A stretch of DNA of 64,000 bases from Candidatus Latescibacterota bacterium (GCA_965198115.1 OZ240241.1:6368001-6432000); one strand, 5' to 3'. Shown: positions 6,758 to 50,348, numbered from the stretch's first letter. Numbers and translations are program-made. Notes: a model not told the origin generated them from the letters alone.

Positions 6758-6779
6758 GGGCGTAGCCTGGCGAGATTGC

Positions 6780-6849
6780 GTTTAAGGATCAAGTGTTCCA
6801 CGGCGCCTGCCGTGGGCAGGTATTGCGATGCGAGTACACTTAGTTAGCC
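6780..6849 (-). other. attC-like site with R' GTT changed to CTT
   Basis: Minus strand: GGCTAAC-TAA-GTGTACTCG...CGTGGAACAC-TTGATC-CTTAAAC; right half nearly identical to the site at 39429. Confidence 0.7.
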
Positions 6850-6892
6850 GCGGGTAGATTTCCAAGGGGGTTTACCCACGTGAGCCCATGTC

Positions 6893-6987
6893 GGTTAACG
6901 TCTTCGTCATGCGCGATGGCCACCGCAGGTGTGGTGCCAGTAGGTGGTCGGTGGGTCGGGATGGGTTCGAGCGTGGACGTGTTAGCG
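6893..6987 (-). other. attC-like site
   Basis: Minus strand: CGCTAAC-ACG-TCCACGCTCG...CGCGCATGAC-GAAGAC-GTTAACC; 13 bp downstream of the stop at 7001. Confidence 0.7.
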
Positions 6988-14412: not shown

Positions 14413-14414
14413 TA

Positions 14415-24034: not shown

Positions 24035-25159
24035 TCACACCCAGCTGGCGATGAAGTCCTCGAAGTCCAAATCCTGCGGCATTTCGTAGAAGTAGTATTT
24101 CATCGGCGGGTTCTGAAAAAGAGGTTCGTACTGCTCCTCATCGGCAGTTAGTGCTTCTTCCAGTCTGCTGAATCGGTCCCACAACAGATCGAGCTCCTCG
24201 GGGGAAAACCGCGCCCCCAGCTCCTTGACGGTGCCAGTGTTTCGCTGGTCGTCACTATTCTTGTGCGTGCGGATCGTCTGCGCGATTCGAGCCAGCACGA
24301 CCACGGACGTCATGCGGGCATCCGGGCTGGCGTGCACGCGGTCGAATGCGTTTTTGAAAGCCAGTTCGTCCCTATCGATCATCCCCTGGAAAACGGCTTC
24401 GATCCGGTCGAGTCGTTCGGCGTACAGCCTGGCGAACTCTTCGCACTGCACGGTAGACTTGGCAGAGAGGTTCTTGACAAAATCAGCGCCAATCGTCTGC
24501 GGCATGAAATGGGCGAAGTTGTGATTTCCGTGGTTATGATAACCCCCGTGATACGTGCGCCGTTTGATATCGCCGTTAGGGCTGGCGCTGTGCAGAAAGC
24601 AGTTGATGTAGACCGCTCCGTCTCCGGCTTTGAGATCCACCTGCGTTGCACCGGGCAGCGGCACGACCCCCATTTTCCGTTCGATCTTGCTCTCCTCGGC
24701 GTTGTTGCGCCGCCGATGGCTCCCCGGAATGATGTGCAGAAAGTCGTCGTCGTAGAGGGCGATGTGCCATTGCAGGTACGGGGGGCCGTTCGACAGGATG
24801 TCCTCCTGCAGACCGTCGAGCGGGGCCATGTCGATCGGATGGATATCTCGGTGCCATCCGGTACTCGAGCTGACCAGGACCCACATCCCCGACGGTGTCA
24901 CCGCGGGCGCGCCCATCAGATCGCGACTGAAGCCGAGCGTTCTCTCGTCGAAGAAAAACTCGACGGCGTTTGCCGTTTCGGGCTCCACCCATTCGGTGGT
25001 GTCGACGCGACTCTGCACACCCGCCTCGGTTGCCCGTTCAACGATGCGATCGACGCTGGCGCGAAGCTGCTCCAGCTCATCAGCCGGAATCATGTCGCGG
25101 ACCAGGACGAACCCGGCTTCCATGAGTTGCTCGCGCTGCTCCTCGATAGTTGTCTGCAT
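24035..25159 (-). CDS. PhyH-family dioxygenase
   Basis: WHRD, QWHIALYDD..L.IIPGSH, LKAGDG...LH. Confidence 0.8.
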   Translation of the reverse strand: MQTTIEEQREQLMEAGFVLVRDMIPADELEQLRASVDRIVERATEAGVQSRVDTTEWVEPETANAVEFFFDERTLGFSRDLMGAPAVTPSGMWVLVSSSTGWHRDIHPIDMAPLDGLQEDILSNGPPYLQWHIALYDDDFLHIIPGSHRRRNNAEESKIERKMGVVPLPGATQVDLKAGDGAVYINCFLHSASPNGDIKRRTYHGGYHNHGNHNFAHFMPQTIGADFVKNLSAKSTVQCEEFARLYAERLDRIEAVFQGMIDRDELAFKNAFDRVHASPDARMTSVVVLARIAQTIRTHKNSDDQRNTGTVKELGARFSPEELDLLWDRFSRLEEALTADEEQYEPLFQNPPMKYYFYEMPQDLDFEDFIASWV

Positions 25160-28180: not shown

Positions 28181-30454
28181 ATGGCGCGGAGCAGTGATGG
28201 TGACACGATGACAATGTCCAGGGACGATGTGAAAGGGCTCGATGTCGCCCGACAGTTCTTCGGTGAGTGGGGACTCCCCTACCTTCGATCGGAGTTCCCC
28301 GAGATCTCTGAGCGGATCGCGGCCTTTCTCTGTGGGGGCTCCCAGAGCTTGGGCAATGACGATGAGGCCTCTCGGGATCACGGGTGGGGTCCCGGTTTCG
28401 GAATGGTGCTCACCGGGGAGGATATGAAACGCTACGGGCAGAAGCTGAGGAATCGTCTTAAGGAGGATGCACCGAACAACTGGCACGGCTATCGATGGAG
28501 GACCGAGGCGAACGTGCCCGTCGACTCAATCAACCCGTGGTTCAAAAGCAACATCGGGTGCTCCCATCCACCTGGATCTGCCGACGCGTGGCTCGACAGA
28601 ACGCGGGAGATCAACCTCTATATGCTTCGCGACGCCACGATCTTCCACGACCCGTTGGGTGAGTTCACCGCCCGTCGGCGCAGCTTCCACGTCTATCCGG
28701 ATCGCGCGTGGCTAAGGGTTCGGAATAAATAAACGGTCGATCTCAATGTTGAGCCATTGGCCGGATCGTGTAGTTCCAGTCGCCGTGGAAATCGTGCGGA
28801 GTGAGATCGATTTGGGTCATCTGTTCATCGGTCACCTTGACCCCGTTAGGGTAGGGTCGCTTGTCGATCTCGGAGCGTACTCGGAGACCGGCTTGAGTGG
28901 TCGTTCCGGCAATGAGATTCACGGTTGCAGCCAGGCTGACCAGGGGCTTGCCTCGCCAGTTCATAGCGATGAAGGAGAACAGGCGATGTTCGATCTTGTT
29001 CCACTTACTAGTGCCAGGAGGGTAGTGGCATACGGTGATCGTCAGGCCAGTGCGATTCGCAAAGCGCTGCAGCTCCCACTTCCACAGCCGCGTCTTGGCG
29101 CCGTTGCTGCCGCCTGCGTCCGCCGTGATTAGCAGATGCGTCGAAGTGCCGTAGGCGGGCCGTCCCATGTTCTTCCACCAACTTCGGATCGCATTCACGG
29201 CGAAGCTGGCCGTGTCGTGATCGATACCGACACTTACCCAGCCTTCATCACGGCTCAGATCATACACTCCATAAGGGATCGCCTTGCCCTGAGCAGGCAC
29301 TATGAAATCGTGTACCTTCACACGCTCCGGGTCTCCCTTGGGTCGCCATTCTCGGCCAGGATTCTTGAAGTCGCCGATCAACTCTTTCTTCTTGGTGTCC
29401 ACCGAGATAACGGGAAGGCCCTGCTGCTGCTGCTGGCTAATCCGATCATCGAGGTAAACGAACTGAGCGTCCCGATCCGGGTGTGCAGATCCCTCCCTTG
29501 TCTTCCGATTCGCCTGCAGCGTGTAATCGTGTTCGTGCAGGAGATTGGCAACGATCCTGGGGCTCACCGAATGCCCCATCGCTTGCAACTCGGCGGCCAG
29601 TTTGCGAGTGCTCTTCGATGTCCATCTCAGAGGATTGTCGTCAGGCGACCCCGCAGTCGTTGGCTCGACCAGATCATTCAGGTCCTGCCACAGCGTCGGG
29701 TCCGTGTCGGCCTTCCGCTTACGACCGCCGCCTGGACGCCGGATGCGAGCCGGGTCCAAAGGTTCGTCCGACCTCAACTCCTGAATGCCACGAAAGATCC
29801 GCTCTCTGGACATTCCTGTCGCCAGAGCCACAATCGCGATCCCACCGTGACCCAACGCTTCGGCTTCCGTGGCGGCCCACAGACGACGCGTGCGTTCCGT
29901 CAGCACCGGAGCCAAGGCTTCATACTTCGTTCGGAGAGTTTCGACGTCCACACTCCGAGCGTAAGATCATTACCTTGAAAAGTGCAGCACTTATTTCGTG
30001 GCAAACCCTAAGGCGCATCCGGGGCGAGCTCTACAACGTCTGGCATCACGGACAATACAACTTCCCACGTACTGTGAAGAGAGACGACCCTATCGCGATC
30101 GCAGTGGGTCACGGCATCTTCGTTCAGTCCGCCATGAAGCTCTGCCTGATCCTGGCAAAGGACTATGCCCCGTACTGGAAGTGGGTGGCCGCGGAATTCA
30201 GGAAGAGATCGGAGAACGAAGAGATCGACCAGGAACTTACCGAGTTGACGTCGATCCTGGATCGAGCAAGACAGGTTGAACTGGTCGATTCAATCTGCGA
30301 GAAGCTGCGGGCCCGCATCCTCGCGACGGGAATCGAACGACAGGCAGTGGACTCAAATCTCGACCTCGAGACCAAACGGCAACGTCCACCAAAGCGAAGG
30401 CCGCGAGACGTCCATCGGCGTATTCCCATATTTGGGCATTCTGTTCCAGGTTGA
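28181..30454 (+). pseudogene. DUF4037-domain protein interrupted by ISAzo13
   Basis: GSQSLGNDD..SRDHGWGPG; removing the IS restores AWLRRIRGELYNVWHHGQYNF...YAPYWKW in frame. Confidence 0.82.
28716..30008 (-). mobile_element. ISAzo13-family element, copy A; transposase 28743-29951
   Basis: GGGTT...AACCC ends; TAA duplicated; ISVDTKKKE, DHDTA.FAV, PPGTSKWNKIEHRLF. Confidence 0.92.
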
Positions 30455-30662: not shown

Positions 30663-30751
30663 ATCTAACGTTTTGGCCACTGGCGACGCCCGCCGAAGGC
30701 GGGTGTTCACGGAGGCGCGAAGCGCCGGAGCCGCCAGTGGACCTGTTAGCT
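30663..30751 (-). other. attC-like site
   Basis: Minus strand: AGCTAAC-AGG-TCCACTGGCG...CGCCAGTGGC-CAAAAC-GTTAGAT. Confidence 0.85.
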
Positions 30752-30908
30752 GAAGTCGTCGCCCACCGTGCTGGTCTGGTTAGGAGGCCGACCGCCTTAC
30801 GCCTGTCGGCGGTCAGCCGCAGCGAGTCGCCGCCACACGCGCACCCTGGCGTCAAACCAACTTCCCCCACAGCACCCGAGCCGACGCCGTCCCGCCAATC
30901 GCGGATCT

Positions 30909-31091
30909 CTAGGCTTTCTTGTTTGCGCGGGCCGCCCCAAACGCTGCACCGAACGCGACGCCCAGGGCCACTCCCACGCCGACGTTGCCGAAGGCCGCTC
31001 CTAGTGCCGCTCCCAAAGCCACACCGAGGCCTACGCCGGTGCCAACCGCCGTCCCACGCTTGCTATCGTCCTGCCGAATGTCTTTCTCCAT
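30909..31091 (-). CDS. Cassette-borne small glycine-zipper membrane protein (60 aa)
   Basis: GxxxG repeats (GTGVGLGVALGAALGAAFGNVGVGVALGVAFG); GAGGGA RBS; lies between the attI-like and attC-like sites. Confidence 0.75.
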   Translation of the reverse strand: MEKDIRQDDSKRGTAVGTGVGLGVALGAALGAAFGNVGVGVALGVAFGAAFGAARANKKA

Positions 31092-31184
31092 AAGTCCCTC
31101 AATATCGCTGGCCGACCCAAGTAGCAGTAACCCCAGGCGCGTGCTTCCATTCTCCCTACTGCACCATCGCGCTCAAACGATTTC

Positions 31185-31220
31185 AGCTAACAATGTATCT
31201 GCGCCGTACGTCGCAGATTC
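31185..31220 (-). other. attI-like site (no adjacent recombinase)
   Basis: Minus strand: ATCTGCG-acgtacgg-CGCAGAT-ACATT-GTTAGCT; R' box with no attC left arm; the first 15 nt pair with the cassette end at 30745. Confidence 0.6.
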
Positions 31221-31372
31221 GCTTTCAAGCAGCGTATTCGCGAATTGTAAGTTGCTTTGTGCGACGAATATAGTGACGCCCTTACGTCAACACGCTTCTG
31301 AATATGAGACAGGCTGTCAACCGCGGTCAGGTTCGCACCACCGGCCCATCCGTCTGCTGATCCTCAATGTCT

Positions 31373-32067
31373 TTAGGATGATTCGAACTGGCGCGCGGCT
31401 CGGCGGGTTAAATAGACGAAGAGGGCCAACAGTACCAGTGAAAGCAGCAGCTCCCAGGACGGGTGCTCTCGATCGAGCAGGACGCGCCAGTCCTGCAACT
31501 GGCTGCCGATATAGGTGGCAAGGAGCGTTCGGGGCAACAGGCCGACATAGGAGAACAACCAGATCCTGGCCGATGTCAGCGGCAGGCGGGCACAGACAAG
31601 ATTGGTGAGTGCGAAGGGCATGTGCGGCGACAGGCGCAGCAGAGCGACGGCGGTGGGCAGAAAGGAGCCGGCGGTGTGGACCAGGCGCTGGTAGGTGGCC
31701 CACCAGCCCGCCTTTCGCTGCAGTAACACCTCGAGGAAGTTGGTGCTGAAGAGGTGCCCCAAACCCAGCCCCGGACGGTGGCCCAGGCCAGCCCGGGAAC
31801 GGTGGCGAGATAGGGCCAGGCTCCCGGTAGCAGATAGCCGCAGACCGCCCCTAGGAAAAAGGACGGTAGCAAGGCCAGGCCGACGGCGCTACCGCCGACG
31901 AGGACCAGCCCCAAAGCCAGGAGCGGAGGCGCGATATTCTCGAGAAGGTGGAGGTAGGCGGGGGCAGTCAGCCCGACCAGGGTCATTCCCACCAGGGGGC
32001 CGCCAACGGCGATAGAGGCGATGCTTAAGGCCGCGAATGGTCGGGCTGTGTTGGGGGGTGCAGGCAT
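31373..32067 (-). CDS. VTT/TVP38-TMEM64 (DedA-like) membrane protein (frameshift near 31790)
   Basis: LALLPSFFLG, ALLRLSPHMPFALTNL, GLLPRTLL. Confidence 0.75.
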
Positions 32068-32837
32068 AGGACTTAGTGGGGGGCAGTGTTGGTCCGCGTG
32101 ACATCAACGGTATTCTTTTGACGATCGGGGGATTGAGGATCGCCATCCCTCCTGCATGGCACCTAGTATCAGGCAGCCGGCGGCGCGAAGCGCTGTTGGA
32201 AGGGCGGGGGATATTTTGGGCCGGGCGCCGTTGTAGGCTATTGGCGCGCCCCCTTCACGGTGAAACCCCTTGCGGGGCAGACGTATCAAGCCTTAGACAA
32301 TGGTTTTCTGCTTTTAGCGGCGGCGGAGACGAGGGAAAAATGTATAGCGGTGTGCCCCAGGACTCCAAACTGGACCACCACGAAACACACATTTGACCTG
32401 TCCGCTACCTTTAGCACTACTCATGGGCTGGCGGCCGAAAGGGCGCTGTTAGGATGGCACAGCGTGATACAGTGCTTGGTATGGCTACGTCCCTGCCAAG
32501 AAGGCAAGGCACTACGCTCTCGACAGATCAAGCGATACTTCCTTGGACCGAAGCAAGACCGTTCGAAGGAATGCCCAGTGTTAGGCGGAGGTGCCCGCGG
32601 GGCCAGAGGAATGGGCATCCAGAGCAACGGAACAAGGAACCGCAGACGCAGATCCATTCTCTTGCCAGATGTCATTGGCCAGCACTCCGAGTCGCTATGT
32701 GTGAGGTGTGGCACCTCAGCGAATCCAGCCCAGCATCCGCCCAATAGAGCTGGTCAACCTAGGCTGCCCATCCTCCCACCTTCTGAGGGCAGGTCGTAGC
32801 CGGCTACTGCGGAGAGTGGAGCCCGAGACTGCTCCCA

Positions 32838-32884
32838 GATTCCCTGCCGGACTACACGAGAACGCCGTTATACTTCCTGTCCGC
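32838..32884 (+). repeat. 55-bp junction repeat, copy 4 (diverged)
   Basis: GATTCCCTGCCGGACTACACGAGAACGCCGTTATACTTCCTGTCCGC; shares upstream palindromes with copy 3. Confidence 0.8.
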
Positions 32885-33023
32885 ATTGAGAGTTGAGCAA
32901 CGGAGACCGATCTGCTATCGTTCTCCGTACGATGTACCCTCCTGACGACGATAGCGATGCTTGTCGAGCCGCAGGGCGGTTGGGCATAGCGAACCTTGGA
33001 CCATTAAGCGAGTTGGATTGATT

Positions 33024-34166
33024 ATGGAAAATGGCTCAAATCTCGATGAGCGGTTGCGTGTTCCTTACTCCATCGGCACGGGCGTCCCCGCAGGGGGTGA
33101 CGCGGAGATCGCAGGGTATCTGCAATCGCTGCGCGTCCAAGGTTTCTGCGTCGTTGAGCGTGTGATCCCCGAAGACCTGGTCGGCGCGGTGAGCGCCAGC
33201 GTGCACCAGGGGCGCGAGCTGTTGCTGCAGGACCGCGAGGCGGAGCGGAGTAAACGCCTGGAGCTGGAGCGCCGCAGGAATCCCAGCTACGAGCCTGGCG
33301 ACAGCCGTGTGCGGCCGCCGCAGGAACCCCACACCGAGCTCTGCGACATCGCTCGAAACGAGACTTTCGCCGAATACCTCGTGGAACCGCGCGTGCTGCG
33401 GGTGGCCAGGGCCATGCTCGATACGCACGTCCGAATCCTGCAGACGGAGGTCAACAAGTCGTCGAAGCCGGCGAAGCAGCCGCTGTCCGAAGAGCAGCTG
33501 CTGCGGCGCGGCTGGCATTCCGACTGGCCGCACGACCTGACCGCGTACGGTCCGAGCAGCGAGGAGCCATGGAAGCACTGCGGCGCGGTCGCCCAGCCTT
33601 TCCCCGATGTCTGCATGGCGCTGTCGACGGTCTGGTATCTCGGTCCAGAGGACGTGACTCCATTCAACGGCGGGACATGGATCGTGCCGGGGTCGCACAA
33701 AGACCCGCGCAACCCGCGCGGCCCCGATGACGGCATCGACCAGCACGTGCCAATTCCGGGCGAGTTCCAGGTCTCGGCCCCGGCGGGTTCGGTCTTTATG
33801 CAGGACACGCGGATCTGGCACTCAGGCGCGATAAACCAGAGCGAGCACGAGCGCACGGCGGTGGTGTGCCGCTACGGGCCGTGGTGGCTGTCGGGCAACG
33901 AGTTCGGCAATCTGCACTCGGGCGGCCACACGCTCAGGACCTACGTGCCGCAAGAGGTGTATGCACGATTTTCCCCGGAACTAAAGCTGCTCTACCGGCA
34001 CCTGGCCGAGGGCGATGAGGACGTCCTGCAGCCCGAAAACCAGCACCGGGCAGTCCGTGCCCGGGAAGCGCGCGATCCGAGTCGCACCGGCGACAACAGC
34101 CACGTGGTCGCCGGAGCGATGAGCGTGGAGGAATGGGAACGGAACCGCGCCTTCGTCGGCCAATGA
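33024..34166 (+). CDS. PhyH-family dioxygenase
   Basis: QGFCVVERVIP, GWHSDWPH, NGGTWIVPGSH, DTRIWHSG. Confidence 0.85.
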   Translation: MENGSNLDERLRVPYSIGTGVPAGGDAEIAGYLQSLRVQGFCVVERVIPEDLVGAVSASVHQGRELLLQDREAERSKRLELERRRNPSYEPGDSRVRPPQEPHTELCDIARNETFAEYLVEPRVLRVARAMLDTHVRILQTEVNKSSKPAKQPLSEEQLLRRGWHSDWPHDLTAYGPSSEEPWKHCGAVAQPFPDVCMALSTVWYLGPEDVTPFNGGTWIVPGSHKDPRNPRGPDDGIDQHVPIPGEFQVSAPAGSVFMQDTRIWHSGAINQSEHERTAVVCRYGPWWLSGNEFGNLHSGGHTLRTYVPQEVYARFSPELKLLYRHLAEGDEDVLQPENQHRAVRAREARDPSRTGDNSHVVAGAMSVEEWERNRAFVGQ

Positions 34167-34290
34167 CCACAGCGTGCAGATAATCTCCACCTCTCCTGCC
34201 CGGCGCAAGATACGCCAAGGTATGGCGACTCAAATAATCCGATGATGCCGATTCGTTTTTTGCTCAGTCTGCCTCCTCTAACTCTTCTTA

Positions 34291-35552
34291 GTACTCCTGT
34301 TCTCAAATACGGTGACGTATTCTAAGCAGACTTTGCCAAGGGCGTATCGTAGAACCTGAGTTTGTCGATCATCTCCGCGAGATCTGTTCGTGTGAACTTC
34401 CATTTGAAGGGTGTGGCGATACGTCCGTAGCGTTCCTGAAAACCGAGGATTCTTGCCTCAAGCTCTTCGAGCGATGCAAATTCGATAGGTGTCAGAGCCT
34501 TGCGTTTGAGGATCGAGAAGTAGATCTCGATCTGATTGAGCCAGCTTGCGTGGATCGGAAGGTGAACGGGGTGGATGTTTGGCCACTTCCCCTGGATACG
34601 GTCGATGCATGTTTGCCCTCGGTGCGAGGAGCCATTATCCACGATGAGGTAGACTTTCTTTGCCGAGCAATAGGGTTTCCGGCTCATGATCAGGCTCAGG
34701 AGCCGGTTGAAGGGCTCGATACCCGAAGAAGACTCACAGAGACCGAAGATTCGACCATTGTGCACGTCGAGAGCAGCCAGATAGGCCAGGGCTCCTTTCC
34801 GCTCGTATTCGTGTTTCAACGCGTGCCGCTCTGTTCGAGGCTGGCGGTAGGGTAACGTGCTTGCGAGCTCGTGCTTGAATACTGGTCTTTTCGTCGGCAG
34901 AAAGTACATATTCCCTCGGCCCTAAAGGCTTTCCTTGCCATTGGCGGTGATACAGATCAAGGACTCTACCTGCTTTGGTTTGGAAGTCCGGGTCCCGTGG
35001 GAAAATCCAGGAGCGATGATACCAAGGACGAATCGCGTCCTCGTTCAACCAGCGCCAGACAGTGGCGCCGCTGATCTTGGCAACGAAGCCCCTTTGCACT
35101 GCCTCGGCGGCAATCTCGGAACAGCTGAACCGCGAGAGCGGTATCCCGCTCTCGCTCGGTAGTTCACACGCCAGCGCCTTGATCTGAACGACCACCTGAG
35201 GGGGGAAAACCGGGCGGGCGCCCGGGACGAGATCTATCTTCGAGTCCCGAAAGACGCTCTTCGAAAAAGCGCTTACGCCATTTGCTTACGATCGGACGCG
35301 GGACATCCAACCGTTGGGCGATAATCTTGTTGGATAATCCCTCGGCGGCGAGAAGCACGATTTTCGATCGGATCACTTGATAATACGATAACGTATATTG
35401 TCCAGCCATTCGCTCGAGGTCGACCCGTTCCTTCTCAGACAGTAGCACCACATAAGGCGAATGTCTTGGCATTGTTCTCCTCCTTTTGAAGGAGAACATA
35501 AGCTACAAATAATGTTCAGAACATACGTAATAATGTTTATGAAACCATGCAC
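34291..35552 (-). mobile_element. IS630-family element, copy B (1262 bp)
   Basis: Near-identical to 14415-15676, including the frame breaks; TA on both flanks. Confidence 0.9.
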
Positions 35553-35926
35553 TAAGGGAAGCGCCCACTCGAAGGGCGGTGGTGAGACAGTCGCGTCGAA
35601 CGCCCCGACGACGTTTCCTTGTAGGTGAACGTGTTCCACCCCGGCGAGAGAAAACCGGCCGCTTCACCACTCTGTCGGATTGGGAAATCTCTACGGTTCT
35701 GCCTGCCCCTACAGACTCCACTGCGCAAATACCAGGCAGCGTCATATGCGAAGAAAGGACAGGGCCGATCGGAGGGGGCGTGCCGCTTTGCTATGGATCC
35801 TACAAAGTCGTCGTTGATGCTTACCGGTTCGGCGTGTGCTCCCATATCCTGAACGTGGTCCGGAAGGGGAGGGTATTCGCAAGCCTCATAAAGTCTCCAG
35901 TGGTCCGGTAGCCAAAGCTGTTCCAT
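35553..35926 (-). pseudogene. Cassette 6 hypothetical ORF truncated by IS630
   Basis: Starts about 70 bp after R' at 35995; its stop codon falls at the IS junction. Confidence 0.5.
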
Positions 35927-35994
35927 CCGGCCACGTTTCCGCTTAATCCTATGGCAGCCCAGGGATGGGCCGTCTTTTCTGGCACCGGCATGGC

Positions 35995-36081
35995 ACTTAA
36001 CGTTTCAGGGTTTGCGACGCGCGGCGTAGCCGCGAGTGGGTGGACGGGTTCGGGGTACGGTGCGCAAGCCCGCAGTTAGAC
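35995..36081 (-). other. attC-like site
   Basis: Minus strand: GTCTAAC-TGC-GGGCTTGCG...CGCAAACCC-TGAAAC-GTTAAGT. Confidence 0.85.
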
Positions 36082-36093
36082 GGAGTCCCCTTG

Positions 36094-36834
36094 TCAGCTC
36101 AGCCATGGATACAACGCTTCGTAAACATCCGACTGAACATACCCCAGTTTCTCTGCTAGGCCGACCGACTCTGAGTTTGAGGCATTCCAGTGCGGTTCTA
36201 TTCCGCGTTTCAGGCAGTATGTGATTAGAGTTGTGCACACCGCGGTCGCGAGGCCTTTCCGTCTGTGATCAGGATCCGTGCCTATTTCTATCTCGATGGC
36301 TTCGTCAGTTTGAGTGTAAGAATAGGCTTCGCAGACAACCTTGTCCTCGTTGAGGGCGCAATACCCAACCCCCTTTTCCAGCAAGTCGAGAGGTGAATGG
36401 GCACTCATGCCATCCGAGACGAGGTCTTCATCGATTCTGAGAATCTCATATCCTTCCGGGATCGATCTGCTGAGTTTCACCAAGTGATCAATGTCCAGTC
36501 CGTAGAAGTCAAACCCAACACGCTGCTGTTTACGAAGCTTGTCCTTGTAGAAGGCGATGACTAGATCACGCCACAAATCGCACTCCGGGATGAACATTGT
36601 GTCCGAGAGTTCCCGGAGAAATCCAGAAGCGAGGGCACTGTCCTGGTTACCCGCCAGAAGTGTGAAGTACCCAAACTTCAACACGACAACTTCCGGGTTG
36701 CTCGCTGAGTCGGCAAGCGCCGAGCCGTAGCCATGACCAATAACGGCGTCGATGATTACGCGTTGGCGCCTATGTCCAGCAAATAGTGGTGCCAGCCCGG
36801 ATCTCGAATCAGGAGTGATCGGGACAAAGTCCAA
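36094..36834 (-). CDS. Cassette 5: GNAT-family acetyltransferase
   Basis: IEIEIGTDPDHRRKGLAT, PHWNASNSESVGLAEKLGY. Confidence 0.88.
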   Translation of the reverse strand: MDFVPITPDSRSGLAPLFAGHRRQRVIIDAVIGHGYGSALADSASNPEVVVLKFGYFTLLAGNQDSALASGFLRELSDTMFIPECDLWRDLVIAFYKDKLRKQQRVGFDFYGLDIDHLVKLSRSIPEGYEILRIDEDLVSDGMSAHSPLDLLEKGVGYCALNEDKVVCEAYSYTQTDEAIEIEIGTDPDHRRKGLATAVCTTLITYCLKRGIEPHWNASNSESVGLAEKLGYVQSDVYEALYPWLS

Positions 36835-36880
36835 ATTAATAACCCAAGATTTCTGGGGGTTTCTGAGTTTAGGGGATTCC

Positions 36881-36981
36881 GGCTAACGTCCTGCCATACA
36901 CGACGGCGGCGGAGTGAAACGGAGCCGCTGTGCCCGAGGGGCCAAGGAGCGAAGCGACGCAGCGTGTGTGGTTTGTTATAG
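36881..36981 (-). other. attC-like site
   Basis: Minus strand: CTATAAC-AAA-CCACACACG...CGTGTATGG-CAGGAC-GTTAGCC. Confidence 0.85.
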
Positions 36982-37022
36982 GATGTGCCAGCCCGGGGTG
37001 GAGAGGATGGGCTCATCCGGAT

Positions 37023-38210
37023 TTATGATATGGAATCATACAGCGCTCGTATCACCCGCGTCTTAGACATTTCAATTGGGCGATTCACGCGCAGCTTAGG
37101 AGGCTGATCGGAGAGTGTAAACATGTGTAGCAGAGTTTTGGTATATCCAAAGCCAAGCTTGAGTTGAGGATCGGCAAAGCCCGTTGCGCCACCATAACCA
37201 TCATGTCCAAAAGCTCGCAGATTATTACCATAGTAGAATACTTGATCCTGCTTACCAGTGTTTCTTTGATAGCCCAAAATGCGAGGAGTTTCTTGACGTA
37301 TGCCAAACGTCTTATTCATGAACACGTCCGGTAGATCAGCCTGGTGGGAGAATATCACGTTAAGATGGTCATTTGAAATCAACCGACATCCGTCCACTTC
37401 TGAAACAGTCGCTGCATAATGTTTAGCCAAAGCACGAGCTGACGCACTAATATTGCCACCAGGGATTTCAGCAGACCTCACGTGAGGATGGGTGAATATA
37501 GCACCTAGAGGTTCATCCACAGGAGGAATAACCTCAAAGAAAATGGGATCGAGTTCAGGTAAATCCTCTTCGTTAACTGGTGCATCATAGGCCATGGCCA
37601 TCCTCTCTTGTGCTTCTGCAGGAGTACCAAGGAATAGTTCATTTTGGATATTCAAAGGAATGGCTATTTCGTCTCGGACTAATTGCCCCAGAGTGCGACC
37701 ATCGACTCGTTTTACCAGACCAGCTAAAACCCAACCTATTGTCAATCCATGATAGCAGGACGTCGTTCCAGGCGTAAACATGGGTTCCAATTTGGCTGTT
37801 TCCTCAACAACACGCTCTAAATCACACCACAGGTCCGGGGGGGATATGTTGGGCAAAACGGGCGTCTGGGGAATGCCTGCTACGCTATTCATGACCTGTG
37901 AAATCGTTATCGATTCTTTGCCTGCTACACCAAACTCAGACCAGTAATGTGCGACAGGTTTCTCGTAGTCGATCAACCCCCGTTGGGCCAACATGTGGAA
38001 AGCCGTTAAAATGGGACCTTTAGAGCAACTGAATATGGTGAACAGGGTCTGAGGGCTGACCGCTGTGCTCGAATTCTCCGCGACAACACCCGCAACACAA
38101 TCAGCTATAAGCTCACCATCTAAGTATACGGCGGCCTGCAACCCCACCTCGTGGCCAGAACCGACAAGGTCATCTAATGTCTCTTGAATCACAGACTGTA
38201 TATCAGCCAT
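37023..38210 (-). CDS. Cassette 4: serine hydrolase of the beta-lactamase-like/esterase family
   Basis: SxxK in FSCSKG, PVAHYW.EF...GK, YHG, FGHDGYGG..GFADP; AT-richer than the backbone. Confidence 0.88.
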   Translation of the reverse strand: MADIQSVIQETLDDLVGSGHEVGLQAAVYLDGELIADCVAGVVAENSSTAVSPQTLFTIFSCSKGPILTAFHMLAQRGLIDYEKPVAHYWSEFGVAGKESITISQVMNSVAGIPQTPVLPNISPPDLWCDLERVVEETAKLEPMFTPGTTSCYHGLTIGWVLAGLVKRVDGRTLGQLVRDEIAIPLNIQNELFLGTPAEAQERMAMAYDAPVNEEDLPELDPIFFEVIPPVDEPLGAIFTHPHVRSAEIPGGNISASARALAKHYAATVSEVDGCRLISNDHLNVIFSHQADLPDVFMNKTFGIRQETPRILGYQRNTGKQDQVFYYGNNLRAFGHDGYGGATGFADPQLKLGFGYTKTLLHMFTLSDQPPKLRVNRPIEMSKTRVIRALYDSIS

Positions 38211-38250
38211 TAGGTCAACCTCCCGCTTTTTGGTTTTGGGCTGGCATTTC

Positions 38251-38338
38251 CGCTAACGTTTGAGGAGCCGCGACGCCGCCGAAAAGGCGGTGTGAGTGGT
38301 CGGGTGAGGCTGGGTTACCCGCGGCTCCGGTGTTAAGA
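38251..38338 (-). other. attC-like site
   Basis: Minus strand: TCTTAAC-ACC-GGAGCCGCG...CGCGGCTCC-TCAAAC-GTTAGCG. Confidence 0.88.
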
Positions 38339-38370
38339 GCCGTGCCTGGATCCAGAAGTAGTACCCACCA

Positions 38371-39368
38371 CTATCGGGCAAGGTTCATAGGACTGATGCC
38401 TTCACCAAGTGTGAAGGTTGCCCCAACGGCCCCGACCACACAGGTCGGCCGTGACAGTTCTGCCCGATCCCGGATCTGATATACTGCTTCAAGTCCTGTT
38501 CAGTGGGCTCCGATCAAGTGCTGCAATCCAAATTCTCTCAGATTGCGTGAAGTCCACTCGAGATTCTCGTCGTCAGCACGGAGTAGATGGAAACCGCCCA
38601 GTGCGGCGTGGATGGGGGCCTGACGAACAATGCTTCGACTATACTCCAGCGTATTGATCATGCCAGCGTGACCACAGCCAGATAGAATGACAAGGCCTTG
38701 GTCGGTGTCGATTACAAGTGACTGGCTCTCAGGTATGTTGTCCGGGGTGAGCCCTGTCTCGGTTTTTAGCTTGGCCGAAGTACCCCAGTTCCGTTCGGGG
38801 TGTGGTCTGGGCACCGGTCCTGTGGGCCATACGCCGGGAAAGAGCTGAGATGGCTTGTCGTGTTGGATGACGACTCCGCCTGTCGCCTCGTATTCGGATC
38901 TCATTCGAGCCATTCGGTTTGTCCGCTTGGTGCCATCGGCACGATAGCGATCGAGAAAGATGCCTTCTGCGACGTGGGCTCTGGATAGGGCCGTAGGGTT
39001 CTTCTGCGACAGCTCAGTGCGAAGACGGATCAGCCCACCGGTGTGTCACTATGGTTGTGGCTGAGAACCACGTCGGTGATGTCAGAGAGATCTATATCCA
39101 GCGTCTTCGCATTTCTGAGCACGGTGTCCGGCCATTGCCCGGTATCGAACAGGATTCGCGTCCCATCGGCTTCTACGAGTGCAGCGAAGCCCCACTCGCC
39201 GATTCCACGGAATGGCGATGCCAACATGGTGGAGAGAACCACGATGTGCAGATTCTTGACTCTGTGTCCATTCTCTTCCGCAGATACAATTCTACCCTCG
39301 AGTACAGGGATAACCAGAGAGACGATTAAGGTGCCCAGGAAAGCACGCACATATCTTTTCTGTGTCAT
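38371..39368 (-). CDS. Cassette 3: exported MBL-fold metallo-hydrolase (frameshift near 39045; in-frame TGA at 38500-38502)
   Basis: Signal-like N-terminus, GEWGFA, ILFDTG, LSHNHSD(H)TGG, SGCGHAG, GGFHL, GAH*TG; the frame continues to TAG at 38371. Confidence 0.78.
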
Positions 39369-39428
39369 CTCGTTCTCCCGGGGTGAGGATCAAGGTTTGA
39401 TGACTCGCGCGGGTCGGTTAGGCATGGC

Positions 39429-39517
39429 GCTTAACGATCAAGTGTTCCGCGACGCCGTGCGAAGCACGGTGTGGTTGGATCGGGGTTGGGAGGGGTTCGC
39501 CGGACACGAAGTTAAGC
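39429..39517 (-). other. attC-like site
   Basis: Minus strand: GCTTAAC-TTC-GTGTCCGGCG...CGCGGAACAC-TTGATC-GTTAAGC. Confidence 0.85.
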
Positions 39518-39555
39518 GCCGATACATGGCTCATTCACTCAGACTCGAAGGGTCT

Positions 39556-40082
39556 CTACATATGCACGATTGCATCAATGATCATCCGTGAGAGCCAGAC
39601 AAGCACTACCAGTAGCAGCACGGGAATCACCTCCGAGGCACCCCCGTTTCTCGAACCATCTGACAGAACACCTTCCAGACGATACTGAATAGGAAGACAG
39701 ACTCCGTAGCCTAACAGGGCGCTCAAGAATAGGGGGACCATCGCGGTCTGGAGGCCGAGCCCAAATGACTCACCTCCGATTGCGGGTAAGTTCGACATCA
39801 ATCCGATCAACGTTCCTAGACAACCTCCGGAAATAGCGAAGACGCGAGTGTTTCGCCATCCGCAAATCGCCTCACTTGTCTCTTTCTCGGAAAGCGTACT
39901 GGCCCACAGAGACCGGGCAAGAAGGCGAATCGATGTCCGACTGAGCAGAATGCAGCCACCAGGAAGCCCCACAGATAGATGTGGGAGGGTGTGTCCCAAA
40001 ACAGGTAAGGCTTCCCCGGGCCACTAGTCAATGTCATTAGGACAACGATGACTAGGATCAGGACGAATCCGATGATCCCCAT
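39556..40082 (-). CDS. Cassette 2: membrane protein, MotA/TolQ-like segments (frameshift near 39950)
   Basis: Hydrophobic; G.LGTLIGL...L....G.GL.TA motif; GGAGG RBS. Confidence 0.6.
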
Positions 40083-40194
40083 TACGACCTCCTAGCTCGG
40101 TTTCTGAGGCTTGAAGGACCAGATTAAGAGACTCGAATCTTGGTGTGCGAGAGACTCTCACTGCCGGTTCGTGTAGGACTTGTCTGGCATTGGC

Positions 40195-40278
40195 GCTTAA
40201 CGTTCTCGCCGCTTGCGAACCCGCGCAGCAGGTTGGGTCGAAGCCCGCAGGGCTGAGCCGAAAGCGGTCGTGTTATAG
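40195..40278 (-). other. attC-like site
   Basis: Minus strand: CTATAAC-ACG-ACCGCTTTCG...CGCAAGCGGC-GAGAAC-GTTAAGC. Confidence 0.82.
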
Positions 40279-40492
40279 GATGTGCCAGCCGGGGTGGGGG
40301 GGTGCGGCCTTGCCAGGACGGCGAGGCCGCAAGAGTGAGCGTGTGTTGTGAAGGTACGTTAGGAGGAAGCAGCCGGACTCCCCGCCTTTTCCATCCTGAT
40401 CTCGGTCAGCGAGATAACCTGTATAGCAACTTCAAACACTGCCAGATTGGAAGGCAGGAAGTGTCACAGTGTATGTAAGTTGGGCTGGAGTT

Positions 40493-41866
40493 GAGCTATA
40501 ATCAAAAGGTGTGGAAAAAGAGAAAGGGCGACCCTACCCTTCCCGTGAGATAGTTGATTCACACAAAACCGGGTGAGAGGCCCGGTTGGGAAGGAGGATC
40601 GCCGTGAAGGAACATACGCATAGAGCCCCATTGAAGTCCATGCCGACGTGGGAGACGGTTGACGATTGGATCCGTGAAGAGATCCAGGGCCGGTTCCAGT
40701 CCATTCTGGAGGAGGAGGCGACCGCGTTCTTGGGCCGGTCGTGGTATGAGCGCCGAGCCGAGGTCGATAGCTCCAGGGGCTACAGGAACGGCTACGGCAA
40801 GCCCCGGCGTCTCTCGACGAGCTGCGGAACGATCAAGGTCCGGCGTCCCCGGGTTCGTGGTCTGGAAGAGCGGTTTGAAAGCCGCATCCTCCCCCTGTTC
40901 GCCCGGAGAACCAGGGCCATTGGAGATCTGCTTCCCGACCTTTATCTCCACGGTCTCTCCCAGGGCGACTTCGAGTTGTCTTTGCGTGCGCTGCTCGGTG
41001 ATGGCGCGCCGCTTTCGCCGACCTCGATCGCTCGTCTTCGAGGGAAGTGGGAGGTCGACTTCCAGGACTGGAAAGAAAGGCGTCTGGATAATCGCGAACT
41101 GGTCTACGCCTGGGCTGATGGCATCTACGTCAAAGCCGGGCTCGAGCGCGAGAAGGCGTGTCTGCTGGTCGTGATCGGCGCGATGAGCGACGGCAGTAAG
41201 GAGATCCTGGCGATAGAACCCGGTTATCGAGAGTCTACAGAATCCTGGCTCACGGTGCTCCGGGATCTCCGGGATCGCGGGCTCGAACATCCTGTCCTGA
41301 TCGCCGCGGACGGGAATATGGGCATCTGGGCGGCCGTTGATCAGGTCTGGCCAGAGAGCCGGCAACAACGGTGCTGGAACCACAAGATCCTCAACGTGCT
41401 CGACAAGGTCGCCAAGCGTGCACAGGCTGAAGCCCGCGCACTGCTCGTCCAGATCCCCTATGCCGGCACGAAAAAGGAGGCCGAGAAGCTCCGGAAACGC
41501 TTTGCCGCACGGTATCGCTCACAGTTCCCTGCCGCCGTGGAGACGCTCGAAAGAGACTGGGATCGGATGGTCACGTTCTACGACTTCCCGAAGGAACACT
41601 GGAAACACCTGAGAACCACGAACGTCGTCGAGAGCCCCTTTGCTTCCGTTCGGCTTCGCACAAACGCCGCCAGGCGATTCAAGAAAGTCAGGAACGCCAC
41701 GGCTCTCATCTGGCGTACGCTCAAGGTCGCAGAGAGCCGATTCAGGAAACTCACCGCGCCACACTTGCTACAACAAGTCTACGATCAGAAACACTCAACC
41801 GGACCGCAGGTCGAAGCCGGGAAGATGGCCGCCTGATTTCTTTTACACACCTATTGACCTGAGCTC
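40493..41866 (+). mobile_element. IS256-family insertion sequence; transposase 40586-41836
   Basis: IRs GAGCT...TCAA.AGGTGTG; 8-bp duplication CTGGAGTT at 40485-40492 and 41867-41874; YRNGY, ADGIY, QRCWNH, RTTNVVES. Confidence 0.93.
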
Positions 41867-41918: not shown

Positions 41919-41957
41919 TCTTAACTGCTTAGTACCGAACTAGTACAAAAAGTTCGC
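41919..41957 (-). other. attI-like primary site downstream of the recombinase
   Basis: Minus strand: CGAACT-tttgtact-AGTTCG-GTACTAAGCA-GTTAAGA, followed by GCCATG as in other cassette starts; about 100 bp past the recombinase stop. Confidence 0.6.
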
Positions 41958-42042
41958 GCTCTGATCTCCGTGGCGCAAATGCCGTCGAAAGTGAGGGATC
42001 TGCGAAATGAGTTTCGCGAATGCTCCACTATGGTGATCGGAC

Positions 42043-42711
42043 TTAAGACGAACCGTCGTTCCCGTCCATCAGCTGATCAAGTGGGCTCCGGATCCGACCG
42101 ATATCGCGCTGGCTGACGTGTGTGTAGATCTCGGTCGTTCTGGAGCTTTCGTGGCCCAGGAGTTCCTGGATGTAGCGCAGGTCGGTACCGCCTTCGAGCA
42201 GATGGGTGGCAAACGAGTGACGCAAGGTATGTACGGATACCTGCTTGTCGATGCCCGCCTTCTCCTTGGCCCTCTGGAATACCTTCTGGACGGATCGTTC
42301 GTGGAGGTGCCGGCCATAACGCGCGCCGGGGAATAGCCACGTGCGTGGTCGGTACCGCCGCAGATATTCGCGTAGCGCCCCGAGGGCGAACTCCGAGAGC
42401 ATCGTATAGCGGTCCTTCCTCCGCTTCCCTTGTCGGACGAGGATCATCTTTCTGTCGATATCGATGTCTTCGCAACGCAGTCTGACAACCTCTCCGACCC
42501 GGAGCCCCGCAGAATAGGTGAGCAACACGATCGCTCTGTGTTTGACGTTGTCGATGGACTGAAGGATTCTCAGGGTCTCCTGCTGGCTGAGTACCCTGGG
42601 AAGCTTGTTTTCCTTCCGTGGCCGTGGCAGCCGCTCCAGCCGGTAGTTGCTCCGTAGCGCTCGATGATAGAGAAACTTGATGGCGCTGATACACTGGTTG
42701 ACGTAGGAGTG
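42043..42711 (-). pseudogene. Integron-integrase-like tyrosine recombinase, short form, 5'-truncated
   Basis: HSYVNQCISAIKFLY..RPRKENKLPRVLS..YSAGLRVGE..GKRRKDR..HTLRHSFATHLLEGGTDLRYIQELLGH..TTEIYTHV. R-K-H-R-H-Y intact; homology ends at about 42711 with an in-frame stop upstream. Confidence 0.85.
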
Positions 42712-43050
42712 CGGCCAACCAGGGAGCGGGTTGTGGTTCTGTCTGCGCCCCCATATGTACTGAGTTGGGGGCGGCTACTCGGTGGTGGTACCGAGCACCG
42801 AAGTCGGGACTTCGCCGAGAGGGTGAACGATCCCTCGATACAGCGGGACCGACGGGTGCGCATCCAATGAAACGTGCAAGCGAATGCCAAAGACCGCTTA
42901 CTCGGGATGAGCGGAATCGCTGTGCTGTACCCCACCTTCCTTCTGCTTCTCAGGCTGAACCCAAGTCCGTGCTCTGGATGTTTGACAATGGAGAGTGGGT
43001 GCTGTATTGTTTTCCCAACGTTTGAACACTTGTTCAAGTGAGGTGTCATC

Positions 43051-43407
43051 GTGTCGATCGACGTATGTGACATTCAGACCGTGGACGAGGCCCGTGTCGA
43101 AAGTGCGAGGCGGTCTTCTCCGTCCGTCACCCAGTATCAGACTCTGGCGGATACCTTTAAAGTTTTGAGCCATTCGACGCGGCTCAAGATTCTACACGCG
43201 CTTTCGCGGGACGAGTTCTGTGTCTGCGATCTGGCAGCGCTACTGGAGACGTCCGTTTCAGCCGTGAGCCACCAGCTGCGAATGATGCGGGCACTTCGTC
43301 TGGTTCGTAGTCGTCGCGAGGGGAAGCTCGTCTACTATGCTTTGGATGACGATCACGTGCGGCAACTTTATGCCGCCGGACTCGATCACGTGATGGAGGA
43401 GTCGTGA
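43051..43407 (+). CDS. ArsR/SmtB-family metal-sensing repressor (CadC/SmtB-like)
   Basis: FKVLSHSTRLKIL, EFCVCDLA, SAVSHQLR, YYALDDDHV. Confidence 0.9.
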   Translation: MSIDVCDIQTVDEARVESARRSSPSVTQYQTLADTFKVLSHSTRLKILHALSRDEFCVCDLAALLETSVSAVSHQLRMMRALRLVRSRREGKLVYYALDDDHVRQLYAAGLDHVMEES

Positions 43408-46369: not shown

Positions 46370-47237
46370 GTGTTTGAGTATAAACCCCTTCCGAAATCGG
46401 ATATCGAACACTTCGATCGGAAGGGGTATCTGATTGTCCGAGGCGTGTTGGATGCGACGACGATCGAGTCTTTGATCGAAGCGGGAGACCGATTACTGGC
46501 GAGCGAACTTCGGACTGGACGTCAGCAGGCAGAGGATGGACTCTACGATGGCTTTCGGAATACGATCGCCTTGGATGACGCGTTTATTCCGTTGATCGAT
46601 AATCCCGGGATCCTGCCGGTCGTTATTCAGCTGTTGGGCGCAAGCCTGCAAGTGATGACTTCCCACCTGATTTACAAGCAACCCGACCCCCCAGGAACAC
46701 CCGATACGCACCGCCGACCGGGATGGCATCGAGACTACGCGATGGCGATGGACGATATGGGCCATCGCGCGATTCCTCGCCTGCTCGTGAAGTGCGCGTA
46801 TTACTTGACGGATTTGAGCGAGCCATCGCGCGGGGCTACGATGGTTACGCCTGGTAGTCATCTGCGTACAGGCAAACCGGAAATCCAGGACGATGCGGCC
46901 GATCCGGAAGGTGCGGTGGAACCACGGCTGAACCCGGGTGACGTTCTGATTTTCGAGAATCGGACCTTCCACGCCGGGGCGATGCACCGTGGACAGGATA
47001 CGTGAAAGGCAATTATGGTCGGCTACGGATACCGGTGGGTGTTACCGATGGACTATCGATCGCAGTCGCCCGAGTTCATTGAGAAGCTGAGCCACTACAC
47101 GTTTTTTGGTGGGTGAGGAATACGAGGATGTGGCGGAGTTCCAGGTGCACGGAGGGCGGAATCCGTTGATGGAATGGTGTGAGGAGCACGGGGTTCCGGC
47201 GGCACGGCATCCTGTGGTGCAGTACATCGAGAATTGA
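46370..47237 (+). CDS. PhyH-family dioxygenase (in-frame TGA at 47003 and frameshift near 47095; possible pseudogene)
   Basis: GWHRD, YYLTDL, PGSH, FENRTFHAG; continues DT*KAIMVGYGYRW. Confidence 0.75.
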
Positions 47238-48897: not shown

Positions 48898-48940
48898 AGG
48901 ATGACCCTCTATGCAGGGTGATGAAGAGTGGAGAGACTTA

Positions 48941-50234: not shown

Positions 50235-50348
50235 TAAGGTTCACGTCCATTTGCCGAATGATGAAGTAACGCATGGTTGGACAGGTCCTCTTCGAGGTCG
50301 GTCCCCGGACGTTCATCGGTAGCGAAGTGGGCGGATACTACCCGACCC

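Follow-up and report, generated by a model that had tools for sequence, protein, structure and literature searches.

In classical integrons, the strand and the active subunit are marked by extrahelical bases of the folded attC site, which are held by the I2 helix of the integrase. The I2 insertion that holds these bases defines integron integrases both mechanistically and in detection software. The canonical attC site has an unpaired central spacer of 5-6 nt per arm and its variable part may branch, according to the text available of Nivina 2016 (PMC5027507). In the 'inverted integron-integrase' integrons of Treponema and others, the integrase is described as oriented for transcription in the direction of the cassettes (Cury 2016, PMC4889954, text available in part). 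Clusters of attC sites in genomes without IntI are called surprising in parts of the integron literature, and integrons are reported in the accessible text of Neron 2022 to be rare in some phyla, e.g. the Bacteroidetes.

Here, a stretch of 64,000 nt from a Candidatus Latescibacterota bacterium (the window) was analysed. Its layout and its crossover core are those of integrons, yet the I2 insertion and the canonical extrahelical bases are absent. We think it likely that its repeats are the attC-type cassette sites of a decayed, co-oriented integron-like element, and that an insertion-less Xer/IntI-like recombinase would recombine the folded bottom strand at the AAC/GTT core. A literature search found no description of such an integron-like system.

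Hairpin sites in the window

A sequence-only reading had reported six sites of a common layout between positions 30,663 and 40,278, and all six were present in a single orientation (Table 1). When the window was searched with a strict pattern (TAAC, 6/3 or 7/4 spacers and at least 8 of 9 pairs), seven co-oriented sites were found on the plus strand and none on the minus strand. In 300 block-shuffled windows searched on both strands, a mean of 0.32 and a maximum of 3 sites were expected by chance. The plus strand reads xxxTAAC, 6-7 nt, an arm of 9-10 bp ending in CG, an A and an abutting hairpin, followed by the variable part, an arm starting with CG, 3-4 nt and GTTAxxx. The earlier description, with 3 nt before 6 nt and the hairpin beside the right arm, holds for the minus strand, which is the cassette-coding strand, and its quoted arm sequences were in plus-strand order. 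Two less clean sites had been named as well. The site at 6893 belongs to the family, although its score is that of a training sequence, and the one at 6780, degenerate and with a low score, was rejected as a working site.

The spacer lengths were then counted over the whole genome of 8.43 Mb. Apart from 0-3 hits in each of the other cells, they fell on the diagonal on which the left spacer exceeds the right one by 3 nt, with counts of 7, 10, 10 and 7. Rfam gave no match within the window, and a generic inverted-repeat finder detected only one of the six sites.

Table 1. Predicted features of the window, with coordinates counted from its first letter
Feature	Coordinates	Strand	Remarks
attC-type site 1	30663..30751	+ (bottom strand, carries the AAC predicted to be cleaved)	7/4 spacers, 9-bp arm, 85.3 bits
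attC-type site 2	35995..36081	+	6/3 spacers, G.T wobble in arm, 69.9 bits
attC-type site 3	36881..36981	+	longer variable part, not a training sequence, 25.7 bits, E 1.1e-4
attC-type site 4	38251..38338	+	6/3 spacers, perfect 9-bp arm, 61.1 bits, z -2.81
attC-type site 5	39429..39517	+	82.9 bits
attC-type site 6, nearest the recombinase	40195..40278	+	68.3 bits
Distal attC-type site of the same family	6893..6987	+	60.1 bits; training sequence
Degenerate site, AAG replaces AAC	6777..6852	+	8.2 bits, E 7.8; left half resembles site 5
Cassette gene, GNAT acetyltransferase	36094..36834	-	PF12746
Cassette gene, serine hydrolase, beta-lactamase family	37023..38210	-	PF00144
Cassette gene in two frames	38500..39368	-	39030-39368 part matches metallo-beta-lactamase fold
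Cassette ORF between sites 6 and 5	39556..39999	-	no family match
IS256-family insertion (PF00872)	40492..41866	+	inside first cassette, between attI-like region and site 6
attI-like region, directly 3' of recombinase stop	41922..42042	-	motif common with G039/G025 junction region
Tyrosine recombinase remnant without IntI insertion	42046..42774	-	no start codon; aligns to residues 151-369 of intact relative P0002

The arms covary and the AAC strand is the better fold

The pairing of the arms was followed with a covariance model in 148 sites from six related genomes, 143 of them distinct. This large alignment was itself fitted to the model, and ten of the 148 rows had served as training sequences; the genomes are also related to one another. 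Ten sites of the own genome (the long site 36881..36981 left out) were aligned plainly with MAFFT. RNAalifold predicted the 9-bp arm from this alignment, and 7 of its 9 pairs showed compensatory changes. In the model alignment compensatory changes occurred at 8 of 9 pairs, and 92.6-94.0% of the arm cells were paired against 75.4% after shuffling, a value that was as high in none of 500 shuffles. Arm cells changed on both sides numbered 390 against 128 in the shuffles, and the covariation score was 0.474 compared with 0.149 for shuffled partners and at most 0.096 when the partners were slid. The arms therefore vary in sequence and keep their pairing, as had been proposed. Fourteen of the 148 sites had weak arms with at most 6 of 9 pairs, and several of these were chimeras of two site types. 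Weak-arm and chimeric sites are not predicted by a pure single-strand exchange at the core.

Among the 143 distinct sites the ends and the inner boundary were nearly invariant. The TAAC columns were at consensus in 137-143 of 143 sites and the GTTA columns in 138-141 of 141-142. The conserved CG boundary was confirmed with the innermost two pairs, which were C-G in 138 and G-C in 136 of 143, and the secondary hairpin abutted the arm with no unpaired nucleotide in 106. The arm carrying the AAC was 2-4 nt longer in 139 sites, the difference being 3 nt in 95, 4 nt in 27, 2 nt in 17 and another value in 4, and it was 3 nt in all seven window sites.

The claim that the arms mostly lack bulged bases stood for the L stem, which runs over 9 bp without interruption. 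Beside it, a covarying mini-helix of 2 bp with one bulged base on the short arm, and at most one, is possible in about 70% of the family sites. Within the window it can form only at 30663 and 40195, leaving four of the six array sites without it. Extending the arm into the spacer without a gap was rejected, since this gave 52.8% pairing compared to 71.6% for the bulged mini-helix.

Both strands were folded. The strand with the AAC (bottom) was the more stable one in all six array sites and in 123 of the 143 sites overall, and a G.T pair closing the R box, which forms on one strand only, was present in 129 of 140. C-A mismatches of the arm had been reported to become G-T on the bottom strand. 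Such a wobble occurs in the arm of site 2, but G.T and A.C pairs were about equally frequent in the family (38 and 34), so that the arm shows no family-wide strand bias. The idea that the site is recognised as folded single-stranded DNA is supported indirectly, because divergent arms keep their pairing and the AAC-bearing strand folds better.

Comparison with canonical attC sites

Strict hairpin scans near the canonical intI genes of the phylum returned only a few, roughly symmetric sites. Because these were too few, class 1 plasmid integrons served as the control. Folded in the same way, class 1 attC had 6/5 spacers, with a G and a T bulging from the arm that faces the AAC, and the published attC models give in their text a 5-nt spacer, 3 bp and then an unpaired base. 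The published Planctomycetes attC model is canonical too. The sites described here thus depart from canonical attC, as the sequence-only reading had stated: the AAC arm has 6-7 nt and the other arm 3-4 nt, where 5 nt are usual on the short arm, and the L stem of 9-10 bp has none of the extrahelical bases, of which canonical attC carries two or three (positions 16, 20 and 23/24). The spacer and the stem-closing bases are also conserved in sequence here, unlike in attC. With the site model the class 1 attC sites were not scored (best 14.7 bits, E 0.5), and in 235 kb around canonical intI sampled in five genomes nothing was found at E below 0.01.

In other features the sites resemble the attC sites of class 1 and sedentary chromosomal integrons. 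They are imperfect palindromes with R and L helices and invariant AAC/GTT cores, the inverse core RYYYAAC and the core GTTRRRY lie at the site ends, and the L'/L'' repeats are kept by structure and not by sequence. The bottom strand is the better fold, the variable part can be branched, and one site follows each cassette ORF, with the cassette boundary at G|TT in the ORF-distal core.

Cassette boundaries and the crossover position

The array runs from the recombinase gene over an attI-like region of about 120 nt and G|TTA into the cassettes, each of which consists of one minus-strand ORF followed by its site. In inter-site segments of 200-2000 nt the longest ORF was opposite to the model strand in 94 of 96 cases, and the median cassette size was 963 nt. 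The IS256-family insertion in the first cassette has several copies of 99% identity elsewhere in the genome.

The ends of the exchanged segments were located by comparing related loci. G039 and G025 have the recombinase gene and about 130 nt in common and diverge right after GTTA, and in G036 this GTTA also terminates all six recombinase units of 2.5 kb. One cassette was found twice, beside an attC and in first position beside the end of a G036 unit; the copies are 97% identical over 766 nt, the identity reaching from the TAAC of its own site to the TAAC(G) of the next. In a second cassette pair, 99.75% identical over 1607 nt, TAAC is at both ends. According to these breakpoints the apparent crossover lies at TAAC/G|TTA, in the core that adjoins the long spacer of 6-7 nt. 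In the attI-like region of the window, the putative crossover of the minus strand is between G41925 and T41924. Judged from their sequence, the repeats are genuine recombination sites of hairpin type and delimit gene cassettes.

The recombinase lacks the I2 insertion

The remnant at the head of the array matched PF00589 with an E of 8.8e-45, and the catalytic columns R, K, HxxR, H and Y were invariant in an alignment that included it. The best solved relative was VchIntIA (2a3v), with E values of 1.8e-60 for the sequence profile and 2e-15 for the fold. The 58 residues 182-239 of VchIntIA correspond to 16 residues in the remnant, and positions 180-235 of TIGR02249 were unmatched. Against TIGR02249 (cut-off 265 bits) the remnant scored 191.5 and an intact relative 213.1, compared with 465 for a canonical IntI of the same phylum, whereas the intact relative scored 222.7 with the XerA model (cut-off 220).

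The proposed loss of the I2 region was borne out as regards its absence. That it was lost is doubtful, because in a FastTree phylogeny, the only tree calculated, the insertion-less proteins formed a clade beside the monophyletic IntI and not within it (support 84), with an N-terminal domain instead. The absent I2 looks from this tree like the mark of a separate lineage and not of a recent loss. The extra N-terminal domain of the intact relatives has about 75 residues. With E values no higher than 0.1, HARP (PF07443) matched 41 of 94 relatives (best 4.2e-4), none of which reached the curated cut-off, and the SMARCAL1 entry 4o66 matched at E 0.25. The assignment of this domain to HARP is tentative, because a Foldseek search with the domain model alone gave nothing significant (best E 1.2) and no HARP entry was among the matches listed.

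Like IntI, the recombinase has the catalytic motifs and a C-terminal SPL motif, and an attI-like site and a cassette array adjoin its gene. It differs by the lack of I2, the score below the TIGR02249 cut-off, the extra N-terminal domain and the position in a sister clade. With the inverted integron-integrase integrons it shares an array that lies 3' of the integrase and is transcribed in the same direction, but in the description available to us those have the IntI-specific region by definition (PMC4889954), which is absent here.

Damaged recombinase copies were found in the window, G039, G026 (N-terminally truncated) and G025 (frameshift). G000 contained neither a second close homologue nor an intact copy, and its other attC clusters had no recombinase of their own apart from a trace of 22 residues near the one at 3.70 Mb. 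The system is probably inactive in its own genome, because the only recombinase copy is truncated and IS elements interrupt the array.

Distribution of the sites and alternative explanations

Intact relatives head co-oriented arrays of the same asymmetry in several phyla. At the loci of the long-form recombinase 43 strict sites were located downstream on the bottom strand, and 1, 7 and 5 in the other three compartments. The spacer differences across phyla were mostly 3 (28 pairings) and 2 (16 pairings). The site model built from planctomycete sites gave a best E of 0.036 in other phyla, so the cross-phylum claim draws solely on the strict pattern scan.

The array could also be a CALIN, i.e. 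an ordinary attC cluster left by a canonical IntI that was later lost, with the insertion-less recombinase as an unrelated neighbour such as an IS91-type element targeting GTTA; we regard this as rather unlikely. Among 168 genomes of the phylum, 17 have a canonical IntI, the recombinase copies beside arrays are often broken, and an IS91-family transposase lies directly 3' of the recombinase in 22 of 79 related loci. The six-copy unit of G036 contains such a transposase, and therefore IS91-type targeting could explain some of the adjacency to GTTA. The IS91-linked recombinases are about 40-46% identical to the one described here, and their G036 copies also end at GTTA beside arrays. However, these short forms lack the N-terminal domain and branch as a clade of their own, and sites lie downstream in 2 of 12 of their loci, compared to 11 of the 15 long-form loci for which 5 kb or more of downstream sequence is available. 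In the window, G039, G025 and G026, no IS91 transposase was present between the recombinase and the junction. In addition, canonical IntI above the TIGR02249 cut-off was found in none of six array-bearing genomes (G000 and five array-rich relatives), the canonical intI loci searched in the phylum did not have this site type, and the geometry is unlike that of class 1 and of the published Planctomycetes model.

Very improbable is a reading of the repeats as duplex Xer-type sites, like dif or the Acinetobacter pdif modules, where the arms bind an Xer-like dimer and no single strand folds. The recombinase resembles XerA and XerC/D in its overall length and in the fold of its two core domains, and the XerA model scores it about as well as the IntI model does. 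An arm without extrahelical bases, the occurrence of chimeric sites and the missing G.T bias in the arm would suit such sites, too. But arms that diverge between sites and remain complementary within each are needless in a duplex, the 3-nt spacer difference would have no meaning there, and here one strand folds better and alone forms the conserved G.T pair. Unlike Xer, the recombinase carries the N-terminal extra domain and heads cassette arrays, and its sites are covarying hairpins in place of the conserved 28-bp duplex of dif. That the repeats are terminators or REP-like palindromes with no role in recombination is hardly credible: they are GC-rich hairpins downstream of ORFs, but no T run follows them, they carry the AAC/GTT core of integrons, cassette copies end exactly at the TAAC, and the sites cluster behind the recombinase in several phyla.

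Proposed mechanism and significance

Cassette recombination in the integron-like element may proceed as follows. The plus strand would fold into an R box of 4-5 bp closed by the G.T wobble, an internal loop in which the cleaved arm is longer by 3 nt, and the uninterrupted L stem of 9-10 bp closed by the invariant C-G and G-C pairs. A three-way junction would follow, its first hairpin stacked on the L stem. The R and L helices would be the binding sites for two recombinase subunits, and the right strand and the active subunit would be marked by the fixed 3-nt asymmetry together with the strand-specific G.T and the junction. The asymmetric loop may set the strand choice, as the sequence-only reading had suggested. 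The exchange with attI would involve one strand only, and its product would be resolved by replication. We infer the activity of the system as well as the strand used and the role of the loop.

With non-canonical sites and a broken recombinase that lacks the insertion, the locus is therefore likely to represent a second, undescribed kind of integron. On balance we favour a second integron lineage that works without an I2 helix or extrahelical bases, uses Xer-like recombinases with an N-terminal domain for binding DNA structure, takes its polarity from the 3-nt asymmetry and extends over the Planctomycetota, Gemmatimonadota, Bacteroidota, Ignavibacteriota and others. Such integrons would probably escape standard finders or be called orphan attC clusters.

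As a natural system it makes it possible to test directly on which features of a folded site strand choice depends, and it supplies engineering with a new site for structure-specific recombination. Some of the attC clusters in genomes without IntI may be explained by it, and it would extend cassette-capturing platforms to phyla in which integrons are reported to be rare.

Layout of the sites

The six attC-type sites proposed in the sequence-only reading were recovered in the window, in a single orientation, by reading the sequence and by a simple scan. On the + strand each site reads TAAC, 6-7 nt, an arm of 9-10 bp ending in CG, an A, a hairpin and a variable part, followed by an arm starting with CG, 3-4 nt and GTTA. 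The spacers had been described as 3 nt and then 6 nt, which is true of the minus strand and is reversed on the + strand. A strict pattern of TAAC, 6/3 or 7/4 spacers and at least 8 of 9 arm pairs occurred seven times on the + strand and not at all on the minus strand of the window, whereas 300 block-shuffled windows gave a mean of 0.32 and a maximum of 3. Throughout the 8.43 Mb genome only spacer pairs with a left spacer longer by 3 nt were enriched (7-10 per cell versus 0-3 elsewhere). When both strands were folded with DNA energies, the + strand was lower for 6/6 sites.

Features of the window and of related regions (L numbers denote fetched regions of array-bearing genomes, G000 being the genome of the window and G026 and G036 its relatives)
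Feature	Position	Remark
attC-type sites 1-6	30663, 35995, 36881, 38251, 39429, 40195	
Recombinase remnant	42046-42774	minus strand
P-type heavy-metal ATPase (PF00122, PF00403)	within 43042-45548	upstream of recombinase remnant
Split cassette gene	38500-39368	sites 5-4
Metallo-beta-lactamase fold match	39030-39368	part of split cassette gene
IS256-family element	40492-41866	also G000 3.70 Mb and 8.09 Mb regions (L009, L010, L011)
IS630-like copies	14411-15684, 34287-35560	99.4% identical
PF07592 (Rhodopirellula-type) transposase element	28712-30012, 48937-50238	inverted copies, 99.8% identical
PhyH-family dioxygenase genes, six	16863-17999, 24035-25159, 32961-34166, 46370-47005, 61944-62735, 62797-63780	
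2.5-kb unit of G036	L024:10146-12681	five further copies in L020, L022, L026, L027, L028
Cassette gene of two genera	L019:5514-6426 (G026), L021:10795-11706 (G036)	90.6% identical
Chimeric sites	L024:2404-2489, L025:3995-4079, L031:1608-1681, L029:747-829, L019:1965-2049	

Comparison with canonical attC

As a control, class 1 attC sites from plasmids were folded in the same way and showed TAAC, 6 nt, 3 bp, a bulged G, 6 bp and a bulged T, with the bulges on the far arm and 5 nt preceding GTTA. According to Nivina 2016 (PMC5027507), attC spacers are 5-6 nt per arm and the extrahelical bases lie at positions 16, 20 and 23/24, opposite AAC. In the supplement to Ghaly 2021 (PMC8352920, file 4), the Planctomycetes attC model opens with 7 paired, 5 unpaired, 3 paired, 1 unpaired and 4 paired positions, and the next model has spacers of 5 and 6 nt and an unpaired base past 3 bp. 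Compared with the class 1 control and these published descriptions, the present sites keep the long spacer and have the other shortened by about 2 nt, and their stems lack the bulges of canonical sites. The view that the sites are atypical attC was thus borne out, the unequal spacers and bulge-free 9-bp stem standing against the 6/5 spacers and bulged G and T of class 1.

Covariation of the arms

When ten sites of the own genome were aligned with MAFFT, RNAalifold recovered the 9-bp arm unaided, with compensatory changes at 7/9 pairs. At E up to 1, a covariance model trained on this alignment matched the own genome 19 times. It recovered site 36881 (E 1.1e-4), which was outside the training set. 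Matches were present in 26/41 related genomes, and in fetched arrays that totalled 411 kb and came from six genomes the model found 148, of which 143 were distinct. In the alignment of these 148 sites, which was fitted to the model, includes the ten training sequences and draws on akin genomes, 94.0% of the arm cells paired compared with 75.4% after shuffling, in agreement with the earlier claim that pairing is kept while the sequence differs. Changes on both sides of a pair numbered 390 versus 128 in shuffles, and the covariation score of the arm was 0.474, with 0.149 for shuffles and at most 0.096 for slid partners.

The claimed CG boundary and the spacer asymmetry also held among the 143 distinct sites. 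The two innermost pairs, C-G and G-C, were nearly invariant, and the 5' arm carried 3 extra nucleotides in 95 sites, 4 in 27 and 2 in 17, the remaining 4 sites having a different number. The inner hairpin abutted the arm in 106/143 sites, two inner hairpins occurred in 93/143, and a G.T pair closed the R box in 129/140. About 70% of the family can form a covarying 2-bp mini-helix, with a single base then bulged out of the short arm; this helix could not be formed in window sites 2-5. The arms paired poorly in 14/148 sites, some of which were chimeras that joined the left arm of one type to the right arm of another and formed 4-5 of 9 pairs. Such sites may have originated by homologous recombination within their conserved central portion.

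Cassettes and the crossover point

The cassette ORFs ran opposite to the model strand in 94/96 inter-site segments, and the median cassette size was 963 nt. In the related genomes G039 and G025 the recombinase gene and about 130 nt are in common and the sequences diverge immediately past GTTA. In G036 a recombinase unit is present six times, and each copy terminates at this same GTTA. One cassette was seen within an array and also beside the end of this G036 unit, bounded on both sides by TAAC, and a second duplicated cassette had the same bounds. Together, the divergence point, the unit ends and the cassette bounds place the crossover in the core adjoining the long spacer. Judged from sequence, the cleaved AAC lies on the + strand of the window, the bottom strand in integron terms. 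The asymmetric spacer loop may set the strand choice. The junction motif of the relatives recurs in the window, where it ends at G41925|T41924 and is followed by the IS256 copy.

Identity between the copies of the cassette gene common to two genera stops at the TAAC and short spacer of the gene's own site, and the two copies have different arms; within each host, exchange or homogenisation of the site seems to have taken place. Between sites 5 and 4 lies a cassette gene that is split over two reading frames and is probably broken.

The recombinase

The open frame of the remnant has no start codon, and its TIGR02249 match was confined to positions 64-180 and 235-315. As had been proposed, the I2 region is missing: 16 residues stand where VchIntIA has 182-239. 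Canonical IntI was found in 0/6 array-bearing genomes and in 17/168 genomes of the phylum, and the covariance model gave no match with E below 0.01 in 235 kb around canonical intI loci of five genomes of the phylum.

Intact relatives have about 370 residues, with an extra N-terminal domain preceding PF13495 and PF00589; between phyla they share 50-65% identity. The AlphaFold model of one of them (P0002) had a mean pLDDT of 86.8, and its top fold match was PDB 2a3v (VchIntIA). The N-terminal domain matched the HARP profile weakly in 41/94 relatives and the SMARCAL1 entry 4o66 at E 0.25; a fold search with the model of this domain alone gave nothing significant. According to PMC4035279, HARP domains belong to an annealing helicase active on forks. 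N-terminal truncation affects the copies in the window, G039 and G026, and the G025 copy is frameshifted; no second close copy was found in G000. Directly upstream of the remnant lie a small frame, which by eye looks like an ArsR-type regulator, and then the heavy-metal ATPase; the recombinase may have lost its N-terminal part to these neighbours.

Occurrence in other phyla

A survey of a one-in-64 sample of the species genomes yielded 79 loci of two kinds. Downstream of the 33 long-form loci, which encode the extra N-terminal domain, 43 strict sites were found on the bottom strand; the three remaining compartments contained 1, 7 and 5. Among loci with at least 5 kb downstream, a strict site was present at 11/15 of the long form and at 2/12 of the IS91-linked short form, 22 short-form loci having an IS91-family transposase directly downstream. 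The spacer differences were mostly 3 and 2. In a FastTree phylogeny of 90 proteins six canonical IntI formed one clade (support 99); next to it, 78 insertion-less proteins made up another (support 84). The window remnant clustered with proteins from Gemmatimonadota, Bacillota, Latescibacterota, Ignavibacteriota and an archaeal bin (supports 93-97). The literature searches, with the Ghaly 2021 file as the supplement covered, gave no account of a comparable system, and none was found in passages of Cury 2016, Neron 2022, Smyshlyaev 2021 and a 2024 preprint.

Mobile elements

The PF07592 copies flank about 19 kb holding the array, the recombinase remnant and the heavy-metal ATPase. Each IS630-like copy has its transposase split into an HTH and a DDE ORF, and one copy lies in the long stretch that separates sites 1 and 2. 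All six PhyH-family genes fall within the 64-kb window, one of them in the array region on the opposite strand. The IS256-family element has many 99% identical copies, several adjoining scattered attC-type sites. The model matches in G000 are spread over about eight places, and its arrays have probably been broken up by IS-mediated rearrangement. The 2.5-kb unit of G036 combines an IS91-family transposase with an insertion-less tyrosine recombinase of the short form; its six copies are 96-99.8% identical, and each ends at GTTA, heading or within a cassette array, as if the platform were itself mobile.
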